Shown here: piece by piece, positions 471 to 64,000 of the stretch
Position numbering within the stretch: the first letter of the stretch is position 1
Layout of the letters: each line of letters opens with the position of its first letter
NCBI GenBank assembly: GCA_002496015.1
Contig: DAIF01000001.1
Coordinates: 8,752-72,751, forward strand
Length of the DNA: 64,000 nucleotides
From: Candidatus Pacearchaeota archaeon UBA73
Lineage (GTDB): Archaea > Nanobdellota > Nanobdellia > Pacearchaeales > GW2011-AR1
Direction: 5' to 3'
Notes under the pieces: model-generated
Told to the model about the DNA's origin: nothing
Database searches by the model: none
Seen by the model: only the letters and a program-made list of their open reading frames with translations
Program-made: the position numbers and the translations under genes

Positions 471-2156
471 TCAAAATTCAAAACTCTTCTTGTCTCTTCT
501 TCTCTTTCTCACGTATAAGAAAAGTGAAACGGCGGAAATAAGCGCTAGTGCCGCTAATGCATACGTCGTAGTTTCAATACTAACTATGTTTAATTCAAGC
601 TCTTTATTCTTTACTTTAATCAGGGAAGTCTCTCTTTCACCATAACTTACTGCCACTTTGACAAACCTGTTTTTCTCAATATTTTTTTCAGTTAACCTCT
701 GCTCTATCTTGATTTTTCCAGAGCGGCCAGCAGGGATTTTTATAGTCTCCTCAGAACCAACCGTTCTCGACTCTAAATCCAACTGTAAATCTTTTATCAC
801 ACCGCTAACGTAACAGTCTACGTCTGCAACGTTGTTTACCTTAATGCTAAATTCACTATCCGACAAATGGTAATCCGCAGACATTATTTCGATTTCGCAA
901 CTATCTATAACATTAATTCCTCGTATATCCATATTCACACTTAATACCCTATCAAGCGAATCCCGTGTTTCTCCATAAATTGCAAATACGTTTGCAATCT
1001 GGCCCTCAAGAGAGTTGCCTTGCTCAACCGCATAAGCTACTGTCTTATAACTCTCTGGATTTATGAAAATCGATTCCTCGTCTCGCAACCTCAACGCCCC
1101 CTCTCCTTCTCCAATAGTGATTGTTCCTCTTAGCCAAACTGGCAGGCTGGAAGAGCTTTTGTAAGTTACTTCTAGATTTCGACTAACTGAATTGTACTCT
1201 ACAGAATAAACTTCTAATCCAAGAACCGGCGTAGGAACAGGGAATATATCCAATCCCTCTACTGCTGCAACCCCGCCGGTCTGTCCCCTTGCTCCTCTGG
1301 CAAACTTTACCATAACAGAAATCCCGGTAGTCCTCCGAATATTCGTTGCTGCATTTACTAATTCGTTCCCTATCAAAACCCCTATCTCTATATCTGATCC
1401 CTTAAGGTATTCTTGTATGCTTTCCGGAACATTCTCCCGTCCCGTGAATACTACAGGATATTGACTCGTTACAAGTTCCATTTCAATAAATTCCCCATTC
1501 GTAAGCAAAATCTGTTTAACTTCAGCATTTTCCATAAATTTCTCTACGAGATCAATATTGTCCCGAAATCTATTAACATTATAAATTACCTCTGGAGAAT
1601 ACTTTTCAAGACCCTCCCTCACTTCGGGATCAACATATCCGTAAATCAGCAGTTCCTCAACATTTCTCCTCCGTAGGATCTCATCTATTTCTCTGATGTT
1701 CGAATCATCTGCAAAGAACACCCATCCTCCCTTTATATTCGCATAAGGGGAAACAGCCATCGCAGGATAACCGTACAGGTCTGAAACAATCACAAAGTGG
1801 CGAATGTTTGGCAAGTCTTCAACTAATCTTAGATTTAGGTCCGAACCTGTTATCTCTTCAACTGAAGAGAACCCCGCCCCCCTGAACATTTCTCCGTAAT
1901 TGTATACAAACGGGTCTGAAGAGGATATAACTATAATATCATCACTCTTATCAAGGGAGCTCATAAGGGAAGATGCTGCGGCTTCAGTAGTCAGGAAACT
2001 AACTGATGCTCCAATTAGTCTGGAATATCTTATTCCGGAATAGACATCTCGCCAATCCTCGGAATTTATCACCACTTGCACGTCTGCTGCAGAAACGCCT
2101 GCTGCTGATAGAACAATAAAAATGCCTAGAATTGCCACCAAAAAACTCTTCATCAT
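471..2156 (-). CDS. Secreted surface protein: N-terminal signal peptide, C-terminal TM anchor with basic tail; function unknown
   Basis: 561 aa. N-terminus MMKSFLVAILGIFIVLSAAGVSAADV. C-terminal hydrophobic stretch YALAALALISAVSLFLY followed by RKRRRDKK. Confidence 0.6.
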   Translation of the reverse strand: MMKSFLVAILGIFIVLSAAGVSAADVQVVINSEDWRDVYSGIRYSRLIGASVSFLTTEAAASSLMSSLDKSDDIIVISSSDPFVYNYGEMFRGAGFSSVEEITGSDLNLRLVEDLPNIRHFVIVSDLYGYPAMAVSPYANIKGGWVFFADDSNIREIDEILRRRNVEELLIYGYVDPEVREGLEKYSPEVIYNVNRFRDNIDLVEKFMENAEVKQILLTNGEFIEMELVTSQYPVVFTGRENVPESIQEYLKGSDIEIGVLIGNELVNAATNIRRTTGISVMVKFARGARGQTGGVAAVEGLDIFPVPTPVLGLEVYSVEYNSVSRNLEVTYKSSSSLPVWLRGTITIGEGEGALRLRDEESIFINPESYKTVAYAVEQGNSLEGQIANVFAIYGETRDSLDRVLSVNMDIRGINVIDSCEIEIMSADYHLSDSEFSIKVNNVADVDCYVSGVIKDLQLDLESRTVGSEETIKIPAGRSGKIKIEQRLTEKNIEKNRFVKVAVSYGERETSLIKVKNKELELNIVSIETTTYALAALALISAVSLFLYVRKRRRDKKSFEF

Positions 2157-2238
2157 CTACAAAACATGCGTCAGCCCTTATTTAAATTTTTTTATCAAAT
2201 TCGACAACTAACGACATAGGCACTCTGAATAAATCCCT

Positions 2239-2661
2239 TTAAGAAGGTTCGTTCTCTTTCTCCAACCCTTCGAGTTTAACCTTAACTTCATCAACTATCT
2301 TCTTAACTACGTCATAATTTTTCAGACAGAAATCTGCTTTCAGAATTTTTAACTTTGATGAAAATCTCATAAGTTTAAGGTCTTCAGTAGTAACTTCTTT
2401 CCCAGATTTTCTTAGATGAGTTATCTTGTCCTTTAAATCCAAATGCTGATCTCTCAACTCGCTCAACACGCGCTCTTTTAACTCTTCTCGAATTTCTCTT
2501 TTAGAATTGTAAACTCCCTGAAAATGAACTTGTTTTGAAAAATCTTTAACAAATCTATCAAGAACTTCTTTTATCTCGCTGTCATCTATTAAGCTCATTG
2601 CTTCTTCAACATCCTTGATTTCATACCTACTCTTTTCTTCAATCACTCTTCTTGTCCTCAA
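2239..2661 (-). CDS. Hypothetical charged/coiled-coil protein
   Basis: 140 aa, highly charged K/E-rich with heptad-like pattern; no recognisable motif. Confidence 0.4.
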   Translation of the reverse strand: MRTRRVIEEKSRYEIKDVEEAMSLIDDSEIKEVLDRFVKDFSKQVHFQGVYNSKREIREELKERVLSELRDQHLDLKDKITHLRKSGKEVTTEDLKLMRFSSKLKILKADFCLKNYDVVKKIVDEVKVKLEGLEKENEPS

Positions 2662-4657
2662 TTTTCTCGCTTTTCTTTAACTCAACATCTTTGTCAGCAT
2701 TGTTCACTGATTTCTCTTGCTCGTGAGAGTTTTCATCCTCCTTTACGTTGCCTTCTTTCTTCTCCGCAGCAGTCTCCGACTTTTCTTCCGGTTTTGCAGC
2801 GTCTTTTTTATCCGATTCTTTCTTAGCGTTAGTCTCCCCCCCTTCTTGATGTTCATCTGACAGATTCATTCTATTTGCAAGTTCTTTTATCTTCTCCGCA
2901 AGCTCTTCTTTATTCTTCAAAATATCTTCATTGACATTTTCGCCATAAGTTCTCTTTATGTTGATATAGAGGTTCGCTGCTGCCGAATAATTTCCTTGTT
3001 TCATGAATTCTTTCATCTGCTGGAATTGTACGTAAAGATTGAGAGCCTTCTCTTTCTTTTTCTTTTCAGCATATCTTATGTTCATTAATAAAAATATTAA
3101 ACTGAGGATAAAGATTGATATAAAAACTAAGGAGTATCTTACATAATAATCAAATTTATATTTTGTTCCAACTGTAAAACTATCAGCTCCGATTGCATAG
3201 TCTTTGTCACTGGATATTCTGGCATAAAACATATACTCTCCTATCATCAACTCTTTTGGAACATTTATCGATCTTTCTAACACTATCTCTTTTCCCATGA
3301 CCACTACTTCCTCAAATGAATTGTAAGTATTGCCATTAAAATCCCTCAAGGCATAATAAATCCCCGCCTCATGACTCACTGCGTCTTCATAGTTTGTTAT
3401 TTCTATCGAAGCGCTCACATTCTTTCCAGGCTTTACAAAATCTTCTAAAACCTCAACCACAATTTCATAACTCACATTCACAGGATTAACAAAGACTGCG
3501 ATAGGAATACGTACTTCTTGTGCACTGCTTATTATAAGTTCTCCATAATACTCGCCGGGTTCAAGGTTAATATCTGCCTGTACATCCATAACAATTCTTT
3601 TGGCTTCTTTGCTCGCAAGCGTAAAATTAGTATCACTTAAAAACAGGATTCTCTCTAATCCAGAGATTATTAAATTAAAGCTCAAGCTGTTTGTGCCTTG
3701 ATTAGTAATTTGAAAAACTTTGCTCACACTAAATCCTTGTTTAAGTGAGACAGAAAAGCTAGAAATATCTACAGAAAAATTGTTAGCAGATTCAGTCAGC
3801 GAACCCCTAACATCTTCAAATATTCTTTTTCTGACCCCTGCTGTGCCACTCCCCTCTCCCCCACTTTCCCCGCCAGAGCCACTCCCACCCCCCGAACTGC
3901 TTCCGCCAGAAGAACTTCCTCCCGGCGGGCTTCCGCCAGGTACAATTGGAGGTCTCTCATAAACAGAAAACTGTTTTTCTTCAGTGCAGTTTTCAAAGCC
4001 GACGCGGTCATATCCGCACAGTCTCCAAGTTATGAGACTTCCCGGCGGAACAACTATTTGCTCTGTAAATGAGGAATGGTTGCTTCTTCCAGAGATATTT
4101 TGCGTGTAGTTATGCCACTCGCTATAATTTGAACCAGCCCCTTCTTGTAATATCTCAAACACTACCCTATCCAATTCTCTGTCATCATACCAAATTGAGA
4201 AAAAATTTACAAAATCATTTTGGTAAATTATATTTTTATTGATAGATACATTTGAGTAATAAGGATGCAACAGGTCATCCCCCACATACAAATTAATGAC
4301 ATTGCTCTCAGTGGTATACCTTCCATCGCTTGCTTCTATAATCATCTTCCCGGTTGTATTCATTCCCGGCGGCGCAATAAGTGTTAAAATGCCCTCATCA
4401 GAAATAATAATATCAACGTTAATGTTTGATGTTGCATTGTAAGTCAGAGGATCATCTTCAAAATCAATGAAATAATCGTCTAAATCTAATATGTCTGCAT
4501 AAGTTCCTCCGTCAAATGAAATAAGAGAAATCTCCTTCAAAAGAAACGGTGCAGAGTTGCCCACGATTATGCCTGCTGTAGAATCTTCCGCCCCCAACAT
4601 CGGGGACAGAGCTATCAGGCAAAAAACAGCCAGCCAAAGCAATATACCTCTTCGCAT
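2639..4657 (-). CDS. Surface protein with signal peptide, Gly/Ser-rich linker, single C-terminal TM and K/E-rich cytoplasmic tail
   Basis: 672 aa. N-terminus MRRGILLWLAVFCLIALSPMLGA. Linker PGGSPPGGSSSGGSSSGGGSGSGGESGGEGSG. TM YSLVFISIFILSLIFLLMNI, then a lysine/glutamate-rich tail. Confidence 0.6.
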   Translation of the reverse strand: MRRGILLWLAVFCLIALSPMLGAEDSTAGIIVGNSAPFLLKEISLISFDGGTYADILDLDDYFIDFEDDPLTYNATSNINVDIIISDEGILTLIAPPGMNTTGKMIIEASDGRYTTESNVINLYVGDDLLHPYYSNVSINKNIIYQNDFVNFFSIWYDDRELDRVVFEILQEGAGSNYSEWHNYTQNISGRSNHSSFTEQIVVPPGSLITWRLCGYDRVGFENCTEEKQFSVYERPPIVPGGSPPGGSSSGGSSSGGGSGSGGESGGEGSGTAGVRKRIFEDVRGSLTESANNFSVDISSFSVSLKQGFSVSKVFQITNQGTNSLSFNLIISGLERILFLSDTNFTLASKEAKRIVMDVQADINLEPGEYYGELIISSAQEVRIPIAVFVNPVNVSYEIVVEVLEDFVKPGKNVSASIEITNYEDAVSHEAGIYYALRDFNGNTYNSFEEVVVMGKEIVLERSINVPKELMIGEYMFYARISSDKDYAIGADSFTVGTKYKFDYYVRYSLVFISIFILSLIFLLMNIRYAEKKKKEKALNLYVQFQQMKEFMKQGNYSAAANLYINIKRTYGENVNEDILKNKEELAEKIKELANRMNLSDEHQEGGETNAKKESDKKDAAKPEEKSETAAEKKEGNVKEDENSHEQEKSVNNADKDVELKKSEKIEDKKSD

Positions 4658-6883: not shown

Positions 6884-7108
6884 TTACAAACTCTCAAACA
6901 ATGCGAGTGCAACAGCTACAAAAAAAGCCACCAAAAATCCTCCTACCCAAACAAACACCCGCAGAAAACTTACATTCAATCCTATTATCAATATAATTAA
7001 AGAAGCCAAAAAAATCCACAACAGCGGACTGACCCTCGTGAAATTTTTCCACGGCATAAATAAATCTAAAATGGGCAACCTTCCAATTAGGTCATAATAA
7101 CTTTCCAT
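6884..7108 (-). CDS. Small two-TM membrane protein (hypothetical)
   Basis: 74 aa with two clear hydrophobic helices (LLWIFLASLIILIIGL and VWVGGFLVAFFVAVALALF). The overlapping + ORF 6811..6996 is less protein-like. Confidence 0.3.
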   Translation of the reverse strand: MESYYDLIGRLPILDLFMPWKNFTRVSPLLWIFLASLIILIIGLNVSFLRVFVWVGGFLVAFFVAVALALFESL

Positions 7109-7250
7109 AAATCTGCCCGTTTCAGATACTTTTTTAATCTTTCTGTTCTGATTAAAATGTAGCTCAGGCCTCAGGAATTTAATAACTTTCTGAGTATCGC
7201 GGATGCTTATCGAATGACATCGCTGCGACGTTCGTTAGCCCGTATAGCAG

Positions 7251-7324
7251 GCCTCTATAGCTCAGCTGGTTAGAGTACGAGTTTCGTAAACTCGGGGTCC
7301 CGGGTTCAAGTCCCGGTAGAGGCT
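7251..7324 (+). tRNA. tRNA-Thr (anticodon CGU)
   Basis: Cloverleaf folded by eye. Acceptor GCCTCTA/TAGAGGC; D-arm GCTC-AGCTGGTTA-GAGT; anticodon stem CGAGT/ACTCG with loop TTCGTAA (anticodon CGT at 7285-7287); variable loop GGGTC; T-arm CCGGG-TTCAAGT-CCCGG; discriminator T. No intron, CCA not encoded. Confidence 0.85.
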
Positions 7325-7331
7325 TTACAAC

Positions 7332-9176
7332 TTAACATACAACACTAACTCGCTTCGTTACAACATTGTTTCCTAAATTAGCATCAACCGCCCCGTCCAA
7401 ATTCGCAGCGACAGTTAAATCGTAATTTCCCGTAGGAAGAGTTACATTTACTGTTCTTGTCCTGTCACTGGTCTTCCCTGGCGCAAGGCCGCTTATCGAC
7501 CCGTGTATCAGCTCCATGCTTCCCAAATACCCTGTGAATACCACATCCTCTGTGTAGTTCCCGAGATTTTTCGCGCGCACTGCAATTTGATATTTTTGAC
7601 CACACTCCAAAGGCGCTCCCGCAGGCACGTCATCGCCCTCGGTTGTTCTGACTCTTATCGTCCCTACGGCATTCGTAACGTTTACTAAGGCAATATCGTG
7701 AATCAAATCCGTTGCAGAAATGCACGCCCCATTTAAGCATCCATTCGGACACGTCTCAAACACGCGATCTTCTTCTCTGAAAGAGCAAACTCCGTTGCAG
7801 GAAAACAGTCTATATTTTTTGCCAACATCATTCCCCAAGCAAAATCCATTCCCAATAAATCCGTCTGTTCCGCAATCTTGGTTTTGAGAACATTCTGCAA
7901 ACGTCTTCCCACAAGAGACATGCACGCTCCTTTTAGCAACGTTATTCAAAAGGTTCGCGTCGGTAAATCCTGAAATAATTGCTTCAAACGTAAGCTCGTG
8001 GTCTCCTTCAGTCAATGTAAAGTTTATAGTTTTTGTCCTGTCGCTGGTCTTTCCACTTTCCAGACTGCTAACTTCTCCATGCTCAATATCTAATCCATCT
8101 GTCCCTCCAACAAAAGTTATGTTCTCTGTAAAATTTCCAAGGTTCCTAACCCGAATTGTAACTCTGTATTTTTCATCGCATTCCAGCGATTCATCCGCAA
8201 AAACTTCCACTCCATCTGTTGTCTGAATGCGGATGGGCCCAACAGTATTTGTAACATTTACAAGCGCGACATCGTGAATCAGTTGTGACGAACCAACACA
8301 AATTCCCTCGGCACATCCCTGCAAGCACGTTTCAACAACCCTGTTTTCGTCAGAATGAGAACATGCACTTTGCACAGTTCCGGCATTGTTGCATGTAAAT
8401 GTTCTAAACTTTCTAATTGCATTCCCATTCAGGCACATTCTATCCTCAACAAAACCGTCGCTGCCGCAGTCAACATCATCGTCGCATGCAGAGGATTCTT
8501 CCAGAGCGTTCAAAACAAACTTAACACATTCTTTAAACAATCCCTCCGCATCATCCGTCCAATATTCAGATTCGGTTATCCCAAAGAAGCAAGCAGCAGC
8601 CTTTGTAGTCTTGCCGTTTTCCAACTTAGAACCCGGTGCAAAATAAGCAATAACATCGTCATCTTTATTCTTTGAGCCAGCTTTTTTTGTAGATGCTGCG
8701 CAGTCCGCAGATTTCGCTTTATTGTCCGCAGAAAGATAATAATATTGAATAGTCCTACCCATTTTTCCTGAGCTAGCAGAATAAACTTTTAGTTCTTTAC
8801 CATGCGCAACGACTGTAAGCGGAGCATTCGCCACTTTTCTGCTCATTCCATCTCTATCAGTAATCCCAAACTTCTTTCCGTTGTATCCGCTCATCATTAC
8901 CATCGGAGCTTCTCCGAATTCTATTTCATCAACGCGCTTTAGTTTTTCATCTCCGATGTAAACTAATTTGTAATCTGAAAAATCTTTTGGCATCCTTCTT
9001 TCATCTATCCTTTCAACAGAAAGAGACATCTTCGAAAAAACATCTAAAACCCTTTCATCGACTTTAGATTCAGACCGATAAATGTAAGCCACATCAGCCG
9101 CATAAACCGAAGAAGCAAAAAGAGCGAAGAGGAACGCTACAAAAGCAAATCTGCAGAAGGCGAGATTCTTTTTCAT
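7332..9176 (-). CDS. Secreted protein with an internal tandem duplication (Cys-rich module plus CARDB-like beta domain, twice)
   Basis: 614 aa. Signal peptide MKKNLAFCRFAFVAFLFALFASSVYA. Two repeats share LIHDVALVNVTNTVGPIRIQTT...LECDEKYRVTIRVRNLGNFTE versus LIHDIALVNVTNAVGTIRVRTT...LECGQKYQIAVRAKNLGNYTE, each preceded by a CxxDxDCG...C module. Confidence 0.6.
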   Translation of the reverse strand: MKKNLAFCRFAFVAFLFALFASSVYAADVAYIYRSESKVDERVLDVFSKMSLSVERIDERRMPKDFSDYKLVYIGDEKLKRVDEIEFGEAPMVMMSGYNGKKFGITDRDGMSRKVANAPLTVVAHGKELKVYSASSGKMGRTIQYYYLSADNKAKSADCAASTKKAGSKNKDDDVIAYFAPGSKLENGKTTKAAACFFGITESEYWTDDAEGLFKECVKFVLNALEESSACDDDVDCGSDGFVEDRMCLNGNAIRKFRTFTCNNAGTVQSACSHSDENRVVETCLQGCAEGICVGSSQLIHDVALVNVTNTVGPIRIQTTDGVEVFADESLECDEKYRVTIRVRNLGNFTENITFVGGTDGLDIEHGEVSSLESGKTSDRTKTINFTLTEGDHELTFEAIISGFTDANLLNNVAKRSVHVSCGKTFAECSQNQDCGTDGFIGNGFCLGNDVGKKYRLFSCNGVCSFREEDRVFETCPNGCLNGACISATDLIHDIALVNVTNAVGTIRVRTTEGDDVPAGAPLECGQKYQIAVRAKNLGNYTEDVVFTGYLGSMELIHGSISGLAPGKTSDRTRTVNVTLPTGNYDLTVAANLDGAVDANLGNNVVTKRVSVVC

Positions 9177-14569: not shown

Positions 14570-14832
14570 CCGGTGCGGACGAGTCTGCGCGCTAGCCCCG
14601 CGCAATTCACAAACGGGCTTCATGGTGGACTTAAAGGAACGCGTGACGCAAAGAACGCGAAGTCTTGCCTCTAACGTTGAGGTTTTGTCCTGCTCGACCG
14701 TACTCTTGCGAACCGGGTCAGGCCTTGATCGGAGCAGCCCTAAGTGGGAAGTATGGTGCTTGTAGGGTAGCAAAGCTGAGGAAGTCGCAAGGTCGCTTCA
14801 CGCTCAATGCCGGGCCAGTTCCCCGCCGCACC
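14570..14832 (+). ncRNA. Signal recognition particle RNA (7S/SRP RNA), candidate
   Basis: A ~260-nt GC-rich island in an AT-rich genome. 5' end CCGGUGCGG pairs with 3' end CCGCCGCACC. Contains the helix-8-like motif GGGUCAGGCC...GGAGCAGCC (compare bacterial/archaeal GGUCAGGNCC-GGAA-GGNAGCAGCC). A TATA-like cttaaata sits ~25 nt upstream. Overlapping ORFs 14564..14773 and 14665..14910 are taken as spurious. Confidence 0.6.
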
Positions 14833-60777: not shown

Positions 60778-60962
60778 TGGTTTCAAAAGGATTTGCTTGG
60801 GAATGTGAATGTGGAAACATCGAATACGGATCATATCCTCCGGAAGAATGCTCGCAATGCGCCGCAGTTGACAGCTTCATAAAAGTTCCGGAAGACGAAA
60901 TTGCTGAGAGGGAAGAGGAAAACGTCTTGGCAAAAAGACCTTTGGAGGAAGAAGATGATTAA
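60777..60962 (+). CDS. Small Zn-ribbon protein (61 aa) encoded between rpl30 and rpl15
   Basis: WECECGNIEYG...CSQC followed by an acidic tail. Starts at the rpl30 stop; overlaps rpl15 start by 8 nt. Confidence 0.4.
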   Translation: MVSKGFAWECECGNIEYGSYPPEECSQCAAVDSFIKVPEDEIAEREEENVLAKRPLEEEDD

Positions 60963-61350
60963 GAAAAGAACGAAAAGGTCGCGGTTTAGGGGAACCCACA
61001 CTCACGGTAGAGGATTCAAGAAGAAAGCTCGTGGTTCTGGTCATCGTGGCGGAGTCGGAAGGGCGGGCAGCGGCAAAAAAGCCGATCAGAAAAAAGATCT
61101 GATTAATTTTCCATTTGGAAAAGACAAAGCCCTAAGAAGAAAGCCCAAGATAAAGCTAAATACCATAAATCTCTCGCAGATATCGGAAAAGTTCGCGGGG
61201 CAAAAAGAAGTAAAACTTCAGGGTTATAAAATTCTAAGCAACGGGGACATAAAGGAGAAAATGACAATTTACGCAGACGCTGCATCAGAATCCGCAATAG
61301 GTAAAATTAAAAAAGCCGGCGGAGATATTGTTTTAACTAACAAGAAGTAA
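60955..61350 (+). CDS. rpl15: 50S ribosomal protein L15 (uL15)
   Basis: Start refined to MIKKRTKRSRFRGTHTHGRGFKKKARGSGHRGG. Confidence 0.85.
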   Translation: MIKKRTKRSRFRGTHTHGRGFKKKARGSGHRGGVGRAGSGKKADQKKDLINFPFGKDKALRRKPKIKLNTINLSQISEKFAGQKEVKLQGYKILSNGDIKEKMTIYADAASESAIGKIKKAGGDIVLTNKK

Positions 61351-61392
61351 CGAAACCAAAAAATTTTTATAGTCTTACTTTCTCAAAAAATT

Positions 61393-62169
61393 ATGAAACA
61401 AATCAATCAAAGAATAGCAGAAACTGGAATTTTTGTATTTAGTTATGACCCCCAAACTAGAAAGTTCACATATTCGCGTCCTTTCACGACAAAAGAAGCA
61501 AAAGACTTAGCTGAACAAACCAATGCAACAATTAATTCTCAATATAAAGGTGTTAAGGGTCTAAGAAAAGGTCTTGCAGCTAAAAATGGCAAATTAGTTA
61601 ATATGAGTACGCTTAAAGGAATCGTCGCAAATAGGGTTCTTATGCAATCTACAAATGCCCAACAATGGTTGCCGACAATTCAAGAAGGAATCACCTTACA
61701 AAGAGCGGGAATGTTTCCTTCAGGAATTTTGATTGATATAGGTATTGCTTTATACAATGAACAAGCCCCCAATAAAGAAATTGCCAAATCTTTAGCTAAT
61801 GAAGGGAGATATGTTTTGCCCGTTTTAGCTTCATTCAAATCTCTTGATTTATCCCTCGGAGGAAAAAGATACGGCGTCACTCCTCGATTAGTTTCGGCGG
61901 ATGGCTTAACCTCTGGAAAAGATGCAACAAAATTAATGCAGGCCAATTCTTTTTATCAAGGAGAAGGTACAGGAGTTCGCGGGGTGTGCCACAGCAACGG
62001 CGACTTCTGGTGTGCCGATTGGAACGACGACTTGGGCTACTTCTACGAGGACTGTCGGGTGGGTCGTTTTTCTGCCAAAGGCAGCGCGCAAAAATTGGAG
62101 GAAGAGGCTTTAGGCGCGTTTGCTCCAATCAGAAAAAGCCTAGATTCGGTTCTTGCTCTGGCACAATAA
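61393..62169 (+). CDS. DGR target (variable) protein; VR lies in its C-terminal region
   Basis: 258 aa. The C-terminal segment VCHSNGDFWCADWNDDLGYFYEDCRVGRF is the protein product of the VR (template-like repeat lies downstream). The CRVGRF ending resembles C-type-lectin/FGE-like DGR variable domains. Confidence 0.65.
   Translation: MKQINQRIAETGIFVFSYDPQTRKFTYSRPFTTKEAKDLAEQTNATINSQYKGVKGLRKGLAAKNGKLVNMSTLKGIVANRVLMQSTNAQQWLPTIQEGITLQRAGMFPSGILIDIGIALYNEQAPNKEIAKSLANEGRYVLPVLASFKSLDLSLGGKRYGVTPRLVSADGLTSGKDATKLMQANSFYQGEGTGVRGVCHSNGDFWCADWNDDLGYFYEDCRVGRFSAKGSAQKLEEEALGAFAPIRKSLDSVLALAQ
61981..62064 (+). repeat. DGR variable repeat (VR)
   Basis: ~80-nt match to TR at 62351..62434; 17 of 20 mismatches are at positions where TR has A. 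Confidence 0.7.
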
Positions 62170-62350
62170 AACATTTAAAGAATATTTTCTTAATTTTACT
62201 CCTAGCCAAATGGCTGGGCCACACGCTGGTTAATAGCGCTCGTAATTGAGTCATAAAATACAATCATTGCATCTAGTAAACAGTGAATCGATGGATGAGT
62301 TGAAATTTACAATGATGGTGAAACTTTGATTAATCAGCTACACAGTTCTC

Positions 62351-62434
62351 AGGGTGTACTGCAACAACGACGGCAACTGGAATGCCAATTGGAACGACAA
62401 CTTGGACAACTTCAACGAGAACTGTCGAATGGCC
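62351..62434 (+). repeat. DGR template repeat (TR), AAC-rich, immediately upstream of RT
   Basis: gtg tac tgc aac aac gac ggc aac tgg aat gcc aat tgg aac gac aac ttg gac aac ttc aac gag aac tgt cga. Non-coding (preceded by an in-frame TGA, no ATG) and AAC-codon-rich as in DGR TRs. Confidence 0.7.
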
Positions 62435-62451
62435 TGGCTTGCTAGGAAAAA

Positions 62452-63351
62452 ATGAAAACTTATAGTAACTCGCACAAAAAAATAATCTCTTTTGAAAATC
62501 TTATCCTAGCTTGGAAAAAAGCTAGAAAAGGTAAAACTAAAAAAGATTATGTTATAAAGTTTGAAGATGAATTATTCTGTAATCTAATGGCCCTTCATTA
62601 TGAATTAAAATTCCATGCTTATTCGCCACGTCCGCTCGTAACTTTCATCTTGCGCGACCCAAAAACTCGGGTAATTTCAAAATCCGACTTTAGAGATAGA
62701 ATTGTTCATCACGCTATTTGCAATATCATTGAGCCAATATTTGACAAAACTTTCATCCATGATTCGTGTTCAAACAGAAAGAACAAGGGAAATTTATTTG
62801 CCCTCATGCGTTTACAAAAATTTATCAGAAAGATATCAAAAAACGGATTAATTGCAAAAAATAAATTTCAGGACAATAATTTTGTAGTCGGATACTGTCT
62901 AAAAGCAGACATCAAACACTATTTTCAAGAAGTTGATCACAATATTCGCTACGTAGATGATTTTGTTATCTTACATCGCTCTAAAGAACAGTTGGTCTTG
63001 TGGAAAGAGCAGATTAATAACTTTCTGAAAGAAAATTTAAAGATTGAACTACACTCTCAAAAATCAAGGATCATTCCGCTTTCAAAAGGGATAGACTTTG
63101 TAGGATTTCGAAATTTTTATCACTATAAACTTCCGAGAAAAAGAAATATAAGAAAAATGCAGAGAAGAATTCAAGCATTTCTCGAAGAAGAAATTTCATA
63201 CCAAGAATTAATGGAAAGTTATCAAGGTTGGCAGGCGTATGTAAAATGGTCGAGCTCTCTTAACTTAAGAAGAAATTTGTTAAAAGAAATTCAGAAAGTA
63301 AAACAATCTCTAGTCGAGAAGAGAAAAACATCCTTACAGCATTCTCGCTAA
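62452..63351 (+). CDS. DGR-type reverse transcriptase, apparently lacking the motif 4/B region
   Basis: N-terminus matches DGR RTs (ENLILAWKKARKGK; ISKSDFRDRIVHHAICNIIEPIFDKTFIHDSCSNRKNKG). Motif A LKADIKHYFQEVDH is followed after only 3 residues by motif C YVDDFVIL. Thumb-like GIDFVGFRNF. Confidence 0.75.
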   Translation: MKTYSNSHKKIISFENLILAWKKARKGKTKKDYVIKFEDELFCNLMALHYELKFHAYSPRPLVTFILRDPKTRVISKSDFRDRIVHHAICNIIEPIFDKTFIHDSCSNRKNKGNLFALMRLQKFIRKISKNGLIAKNKFQDNNFVVGYCLKADIKHYFQEVDHNIRYVDDFVILHRSKEQLVLWKEQINNFLKENLKIELHSQKSRIIPLSKGIDFVGFRNFYHYKLPRKRNIRKMQRRIQAFLEEEISYQELMESYQGWQAYVKWSSSLNLRRNLLKEIQKVKQSLVEKRKTSLQHSR

Positions 63352-63396
63352 TTTTCCCAATATCTTTAAAAAGTCTAATTTCAGAATAATATAAAA

Positions 63397-64000
63397 TGGC
63401 ATCAGCCCTAAAAAACATCCTCTATAATCTCCCTGAGGTTAAACGGCCGACAGAAAAGAAAGTTAGTTTCAACGTCAAGTTGAAATGGACTATCATCATC
63501 CTAGTTGCATTTTTTATCCTGGCTAACGTTGACTTATATGGCCTGTCCGCCAACGCCTTAGGCAACTTGGAATTTCTTCAGACAATTCTTGCTTCTCAGT
63601 TTGGTACGATAATCAGCTTGGGTATCGGACCAATAGTCATGTCATCTATCATCCTACAGCTTCTCGTCGGCTCAGGTATACTTAAAATCAATACGAAAAC
63701 CGAAGAAGGCAAGAAATATTTTCAGGGTCTTCAAAAAGTTGGAGTTCTTTTCTTTATAGTGTTTGAAGCGATAGTTTACGTAGCGATGGGCGGATTACAG
63801 GCAGATCCAAACCTTGCATGGGGCTCGCAGATACTCATCTTTCAGCTAATCCTCGGCGGACTCGCCATAATGTTCATGGACGAAGTGGTTCAAAAGTGGG
63901 GCTTTGGTTCTGGCGTTTCTCTATTTATCGTAGCCGGAGTCGCTTGGAGCTTATTCAATGGGCTGTTCCAGTTCATAGACGCTTCAGGTGCGAACTGTCT
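63397..64000 (+). CDS. secY: Preprotein translocase SecY, N-terminal part (runs off the window)
   Basis: Open frame from ATG 63397 to the window end: MASALKNILYNLPEVKRPTEKKVSFNVKLKWTIIILVAFFILANVDLYG...LGIGPIVMSSIILQLL. Absent from the ORF track because there is no in-window stop. Confidence 0.75.

Follow-up and report, generated by a model that had tools for sequence, protein, structure and literature searches.

A DPANN DGR between rpL15 and secY with a reverse transcriptase probably disabled by one recent in-frame deletion

Within the window, by which we mean the whole 64-kb stretch of DNA analysed here, a gene for a DGR-type reverse transcriptase (RT) passes almost directly from motif A to motif C. 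An earlier note on this DNA had read only the residues NIR between motif A and YVDDFVIL in a protein of 299 aa, and from this the motif 4/B region appeared to have been lost. It had offered two explanations, namely an in-frame deletion in a decaying DGR or an unusually minimal RT. This arrangement raises the questions of whether a part of the polymerase core has really been removed from the gene and, if so, what kind of element has been left behind.

A DGR cassette beside ribosomal protein genes

The RT is the last member of a cassette that begins with a target gene carrying the VR and continues through an RT-16 RNA and the TR, with every part on the + strand. The cassette and its two flanking genes are arranged as follows:

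60901..61350, + strand: ribosomal protein L15 gene, the upstream flank, separated from the cassette by a 43-bp gap (tblastn; located next to S5, L30 and SecY in the related loci L007 and L010)
61393..62169, + strand: DGR target (variable protein) gene, 258 aa, an intact ORF with the VR near the C-terminus (ORF list, VR content)
61974..62062, + strand: VR, ending in an IMH-like GTCGGGTGG (89 bp, gapless alignment to the TR)
62072..62084, + strand: post-VR hairpin CTGCC-AAA-GGCAG, with a 5-bp stem and a 3-nt loop, inside the target gene
62201..62346, + strand: RT-16 RNA (Rfam RF03019), adjoining the TR at its 5′ end (75.6 bits, gathering score 50, full model 1-158 of 158)
62344..62432, + strand: TR with many AAC/AAT codons; 19 nt separate its end from the RT start codon (repeat alignment)
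62452..63351, + strand: DGR-type reverse transcriptase ORF with an internal in-frame deletion (299 aa; motif A D153 and YVDD 167-170 present)
63396..64000, + strand: 5′ part of secY, the downstream flank, separated by a 44-bp gap and running off the window (63-65% identity to the SecY of L007 and L010)

The RT belongs to the DGR RT clade, where it has thousands of homologs. Its best match in the PDB is the bRT protein of a Bordetella phage, and its closest homologs are Nanoarchaeota RTs with adjoining TR/VR pairs. The cassette is a DGR of the Nanoarchaeota or DPANN type, which is an already known kind of element, and it represents no new kind of system. It shares with the published Nanoarchaeota/DPANN DGRs (Paul et al., 2015; PMC4372165) the order of target, TR and RT, an AAC-rich TR, repeat ends with an IMH-like GG versus an IMH* AA, and a putative hairpin with a trinucleotide loop in the target gene. 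In contrast to these DGRs, its RT lacks about 67 residues including the signature [I/V/L]GxxxSQ, its hairpin loop is AAA rather than GAA or GTA, and the cassette resides inside the L15-secY junction. As in the CPR set (Wu et al., 2018; PMC5758913), several non-A substitutions are present and ribosomal protein genes lie nearby, and such genes have been noted inside the DGRs of that set.

Over their 89 bp, the VR and TR differ at 19-20 positions, of which 16 are TR adenines. The remaining 3-4 mismatches are 61990 T>C, 61991 G>A, 62003 G>A and, at the 5′ edge, 61979 T>G. The repeat ends (GTCGGGTGG in the VR and GTCGAATGG in the TR) resemble the published Nanoarchaeota IMH/IMH* pair TGGGGT/TGGAAT (PMC4372165). 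A G-versus-A pair of repeat ends is also present in most of the 11 related cassettes examined, several of which carry the identical motif. Furthermore, all 11 of these relatives have a hairpin with a trinucleotide loop located 8-33 nt past the VR. Their loops are GAA (seven), GTA (three) and AGC (one), the loop of published Nanoarchaeota DGRs being GRA, and an AAA loop is found in the window only. The fold energy of the window hairpin is no better than that of shuffled sequences. The AAA loop could be a second small defect of the cassette or could be harmless variation.

The accessory gene avd is absent, as no ORF lies between the target gene and the RT, and the flanking genes are L15 and secY. 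This absence seems to be typical of the clade, since the closest cassette, that of L001, is also without avd between target and RT. Compared with the products of the target genes that precede the RT in L001 and L008, the target protein shows 51% and 47% identity, respectively, and searches with it against Pfam, NCBIfam and PDB sequences gave no match.

The RT-16 RNA immediately precedes the TR in each of the 13 related cassettes that were scanned, with scores of 55.9-103.8 bits. These are L001 (5809-5965), L008 (5727-5891), L029 (46-175), L030 (2387-2571), L005, L007, L010, L015, L016, L017, L020, L024 and L025. Because RT-16 holds this position in the window and in these 13 cassettes, it would seem that in Nanoarchaeota-type DGRs this RNA forms the structured upstream portion of the DGR RNA. 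The paper describing the RT motifs linked only RT-10 to DGRs (PMC5737381). The window RNA has imperfections, in that an inner helix is missing and the first hairpin is short, and these are common to L001, whose RT is intact. We considered the lower RT-16 score as a mark of decay and rejected it, given these common features and the range of 56-104 bits in relatives with intact RTs.

The cassette has been inserted, on the same strand, between two genes that are adjacent in both L007 and L010 (regions compared: window 60901-63998, L007 ~6954-8922 and L010 ~1631-3681). The RT gene has a GC content of 31.8%, compared with 41.7% over the whole window and 44.8% in the ribosomal protein genes nearby, and this low value is consistent with a horizontally acquired cassette. 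Separately, L007 and L010 each carry a DGR from another lineage (RT 50% and 63% identical, respectively) directly downstream of secY in convergent orientation. DGRs abut secY in 3 of 26 loci, which seems to be above chance.

Two further observations concern annotation. An SRP RNA at 14575-14826 (+) of the window has Bacteria_large_SRP as its best model (63.8 bits, gathering score 60). The ribosomal proteins around it and all relatives are archaeal, and the bacterial-type match probably reflects a divergent DPANN SRP RNA. In addition, many gene calls for homologous RTs begin inside the TR, as in L001 6001-6072 (P0004) and also in P0002, P0003, P0006 and P0008. The spurious N-terminal extensions that result, such as MPIGTTTWTTSTRTVEWLSQ, are translated template repeat, and the true start is the conserved MKTYN.

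The missing core segment of the RT

The place at which the RT is shortened can be located to a few codons:

62938..62949, + strand: deletion junction, codons H163-N164-I165-R166 (alignments, spacing statistics, bRT mapping)

Around this junction the 299-aa RT reads ...LKADIKHYFQEVDH-N-IRYVDDFVIL (also written ...GYCLKADIKHYFQEVDHNIRYVDDFVILH or ...GYCLKADIKHYFQEVDH-N-IRYVDDFVILH). The junction consists only of H163-N164-I165-R166, ahead of Y167-D170, and the motif A aspartate is separated from YVDD by 14 residues, in agreement with the reading of the ORF given in the earlier note. In homologs we measured the same distance, taking D[IVL]x.[YF]F as the pattern for motif A and Y.DD as the end point. 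Of the 119 best homologs listed, 117 allowed both patterns to be placed, and in every one of these 117 the spacing is 76-109 residues, which places the window RT far outside the variation of the family. The gap corresponds to 62-95 codons of the homologs and to 67 codons relative to the homolog P0005.

In a 14-sequence alignment, the window RT exhibits a single clean gap between EVDH(N) and IRYVDD, and a second alignment likewise contains one clean gap. This gap is filled in every homolog by 62-95 residues that include the near-invariant GMPLGNLTSQFFANVYLNELDYFVKH. Of 110 columns that are at least 95% conserved in the RT family, 25 are absent from the window RT, and these absent columns spell L..D..L..GMPLGNLTSQFFAN.YLN..D.F.K..L..Y. 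Thus palm motifs A and C are present at an abnormal spacing and motif B is absent, together with the signature [I/V/L]GxxxSQ that homologs carry as LGNLTSQ.

Profile searches are interrupted at the same place. The match to Pfam RVT_1 passes its cut-off (34.4 versus 29.6) while covering only RT residues 164-220, which correspond to profile positions 149-204 of 205. Two separate pieces of the protein match the NCBIfam group II RT model, the closest BLAST matches cover 55-62% of the query, and residue ~165 is where BLAST as well as HMMER alignments are interrupted. Motif B is not placed between residues ~160 and ~175 by any profile or pairwise alignment. A split or relocated RT inside the 64-kb window was also considered and rejected, as tblastn searches of the window for a motif B remnant or a second RT found neither and returned noise only.

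The best solved relative of the window RT is bRT (PDB 8ub7, E 9.7e-32). With phmmer the alignment splits into RT residues 4-129 with bRT 5-130 and RT residues 161-272 with bRT 207-315. The full-length homolog P0005 aligns contiguously with bRT 10-315, and through this alignment H163 of the window RT is equivalent to R148 of bRT, and I165-R166-Y167 to A211-R212-Y213. Because P0005 is contiguous with bRT over this range, the lost segment is equivalent to bRT residues ~149-210. This segment contains I181-G-S-L-T-S-Q187, which is the DGR signature [I/V/L]GxxxSQ. The alignments to homologs and to bRT, in which the LGNLTSQ segment is missing, therefore bear out the earlier claim that motif 4/B has been lost. 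In bRT, I181 is the equivalent of HIV-1 RT Q151 in the dNTP pocket, the mutation I181N reduces the catalytic efficiency of correct incorporation to 3% of wild type, and motif B residues are in contact with both the template and the incoming dNTP (PMC7826257).

The N-terminal extension, motifs 1-3/A, YxDD and the thumb of the window RT all align with the bRT of Bordetella phage BPP-1. In contrast, the window RT is without the equivalent of bRT ~149-210, which comprises the helices after motif A and I181-Q187. The cassettes also differ in that no avd gene adjoins the one in the window, and in that the structured RNA is RT-16 located 5′ of the TR in the window and Sp/RT-10 located between TR and brt in BPP-1.

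We used AlphaFold2, which is not a stability predictor, to model the window RT and P0005 with an identical shallow 14-sequence alignment. The window RT was modelled with a pLDDT of 55.5 and a pTM of 0.31; palm strands are missing, and residues 87-170 stay below a pLDDT of 50. In contrast, the intact P0005 reached a pLDDT of 71.2 and a pTM of 0.60, with palm strands present. In the P0005 model, the stretch that the window RT lacks folds into helices 163-173, 177-188 and 205-225. This contrast agrees with a broken RT core, for which it provides weak support.

Close homologs of the RT, from MAGs of Nanoarchaeota, Woesearchaeota and Pacearchaeota, are 74-79% identical in the N-terminal half. The nearest relatives at this level are all full length, and the short form is a singleton when clustered at 90% identity. 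No relative closer than ~79% identity was found in the databases, and hence we can only infer how old the deletion is and what the ancestral junction sequence was.

We searched 1.84 billion representative proteins exhaustively with HMMER, and among the best 150 matches found two other collinear RTs of ~300 aa, P0125 (L029 286-1215) and P0146 (L030 2659-3555). Like the window RT, these are members of the DGR clade that have lost part of the core in frame, and RT-16 lies upstream in both cassettes. However, their deletion boundaries differ from those in the window, and identity stands at 46-52%. P0125, with the join HY|FANV, has lost only the LGNLTSQ part and has C at the position preceding YVDD, where R is otherwise invariant, whereas P0146, joined at INIL|SRKI, has lost motif A with the catalytic Asp and has kept LGNYTSQ. 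The TR of L030 (2568-2654) is accompanied by two VRs (1656-1742 and 2232-2311) with 12 and 15 mismatches, all at TR adenines. The different boundaries and the low identity indicate that P0125 and P0146 are independent events and not orthologs, and thus the three proteins define no ‘minimal RT’ architecture. Either in-frame core deletions arise repeatedly in this clade, as these cases suggest, or such deletions are simply the RT lesions that gene callers still report whole. A more far-reaching idea is that in-frame core excision is not random decay but a recurrent, selected off-switch for Nanoarchaeota-type DGRs, which would lock a useful VR and keep an RNA-binding RT scaffold. This idea is based on three cases (the window RT, P0125 and P0146) whose boundaries differ and whose cassettes or RNA elements are otherwise intact, and we regard it as a long shot.

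Divergence of the remnant and competing explanations

Apart from the deletion, the RT has diverged normally. Its 85 retained conserved columns contain one substitution (A107S), against a mean of 1.8 in the compared sequences. The ratio of C-half to N-half identity is 0.852, and it is 0.854 for pairs of intact homologs. Likewise, its identity to 76 more distant members of the family is 0.636, compared with 0.639 ± 0.015 for the 14 closest sisters. Conserved columns, C/N ratio and relative rate therefore give no signal of relaxed selection on the remainder of the RT. The ORF of the target gene is open and collinear with its homologs. Besides the deletion, nothing but the AAA loop of the hairpin stands out as unusual.

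The three non-adenine mismatches that the earlier note had brought into its argument (61990, 61991 and 62003) are real, but they are weak evidence of decay. Relatives with full-length RTs carry 0-5 such mismatches, and this range makes them non-diagnostic of decay. Multiple non-A substitutions are also frequent among DGRs of the CPR/DPANN set (Wu et al., PMC5758913). The in-frame deletion proposed in that note is upheld by the alignments, but to call the DGR decaying is an overstatement, as the rest of the element is without detectable degeneration. If nothing has degenerated besides the deletion, then the deletion is either evolutionarily recent or not real. From the divergence data it looks recent.

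A deletion that is not real would be an artefact of assembly or consensus, whereby the true RT is full length and was shortened through a collapsed path, or a minority deletion allele was chosen by the assembler. The contig is derived from a metagenome, the protein forms a singleton cluster, and an exact search for the junction DNA in genome and metagenome contig collections gave no match. The pristine condition of the rest of the cassette would be equally expected from an artefact. However, the same 299-aa protein is recorded from both NCBI and Logan sources, which suggests that two assemblies agree. Moreover, the gap is exactly in frame with no obvious long repeat to collapse, and comparable in-frame core deletions are present in two unrelated samples (P0125 and P0146, each a single assembly). 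We consider an artefact unlikely on these grounds. Somewhat harder to accept is a genuine but dead RT allele in a DGR for which a second DGR RT, with its gene elsewhere in the genome, works in trans, such that the VR is still diversifying. DGRs are able to act on remote targets (PMC5758913), and the cis elements of the cassette (TR, IMH-like end, hairpin stem and RT-16 RNA) are intact. In L030, the RT without motif A stands beside two VRs whose mismatches are purely of the adenine type. The window, which covers only 64 kb of the genome, contains no second RT, DGR RTs usually pair with their own cognate RNA, and the VR, with its 3-4 non-adenine mismatches, exhibits no sign of recent homing.

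It is very unlikely that the short RT is under selection for a non-catalytic role, for example in binding the RT-16/TR RNA or as a regulator, and hence is no pseudogene. Such a role could explain why 135 codons past the junction are open and free of excess substitutions, and three independent in-frame core deletions are known in the clade. Yet recency is a simpler explanation for the same facts, and the three deletions remove different parts and so leave no common architecture. The core of the window RT is also unfolded in the AlphaFold2 model, and no cluster of orthologs keeps the short form, which is a singleton at 90% identity among relatives that are full length at 74-79%. We know of no RVT_1-type polymerase without motif B, and a naturally minimal and catalytically active RT that dispenses with this motif, along the lines of the unusually minimal RT of the earlier note, is hardly credible. 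The motif A Asp and YVDD are indeed kept, but the missing segment is retained in all 117 measurable homologs and is contiguous with bRT in an intact homolog. The two other short proteins differ in their boundaries, and residues of motif B contact both dNTP and template (PMC7826257).

The explanation that we consider probable, and hold with good confidence, is that a DGR between rpL15 and secY had its RT disabled by one recent in-frame deletion of ~200 bp and that its VR is frozen. The element is most likely a freshly switched-off DGR at an ordinary stage of turnover. Against this explanation it should be said that continued selection on the remnant could likewise account for an ORF that has been retained without extra divergence.

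Proposed course of events and its implications

According to the explanation by recent deletion, a single in-frame event of ~200 bp (~67 codons) would have removed three fingers/palm helices, including the whole of motif 4/B (LGNLTSQ), and would have left motif A (D153), YVDD, the thumb and the N-terminal extension. Homologs read H-x-I/V-L, with x varying, on the left of the deletion, from which H-N-I would derive, and ...KYY-I-RYVDD on the right, which would be the source of RYVDD. The deletion may have arisen by slippage between short ATATT-like repeats. These repeats are conjectural, and the DNA of the nearest relatives has diverged too far to reveal microhomology at the junction.

Motif B supplies a residue of the dNTP pocket (bRT I181, HIV-1 RT Q151) as well as a helix that packs on the catalytic hairpin, and no cDNA synthesis is therefore expected from the shortened RT. 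If catalysis has been lost, as homology predicts, mutagenic homing from the window TR would stop. The VR would then stay frozen as it is now, unless an RT other than this one acts in trans.

Annotation pipelines would label genes of this type ‘reverse transcriptase’ and would count the cassette as functional, whereas a check of the motif A-C spacing flags them. For the biology of these archaea, the locus would provide a clean and datable case of DGR switch-off, in which a single in-frame deletion takes the dNTP-binding motif and leaves the other parts intact. It supports the idea that DGRs turn over quickly in the small genomes of DPANN, and that a VR can become frozen through loss of its RT.
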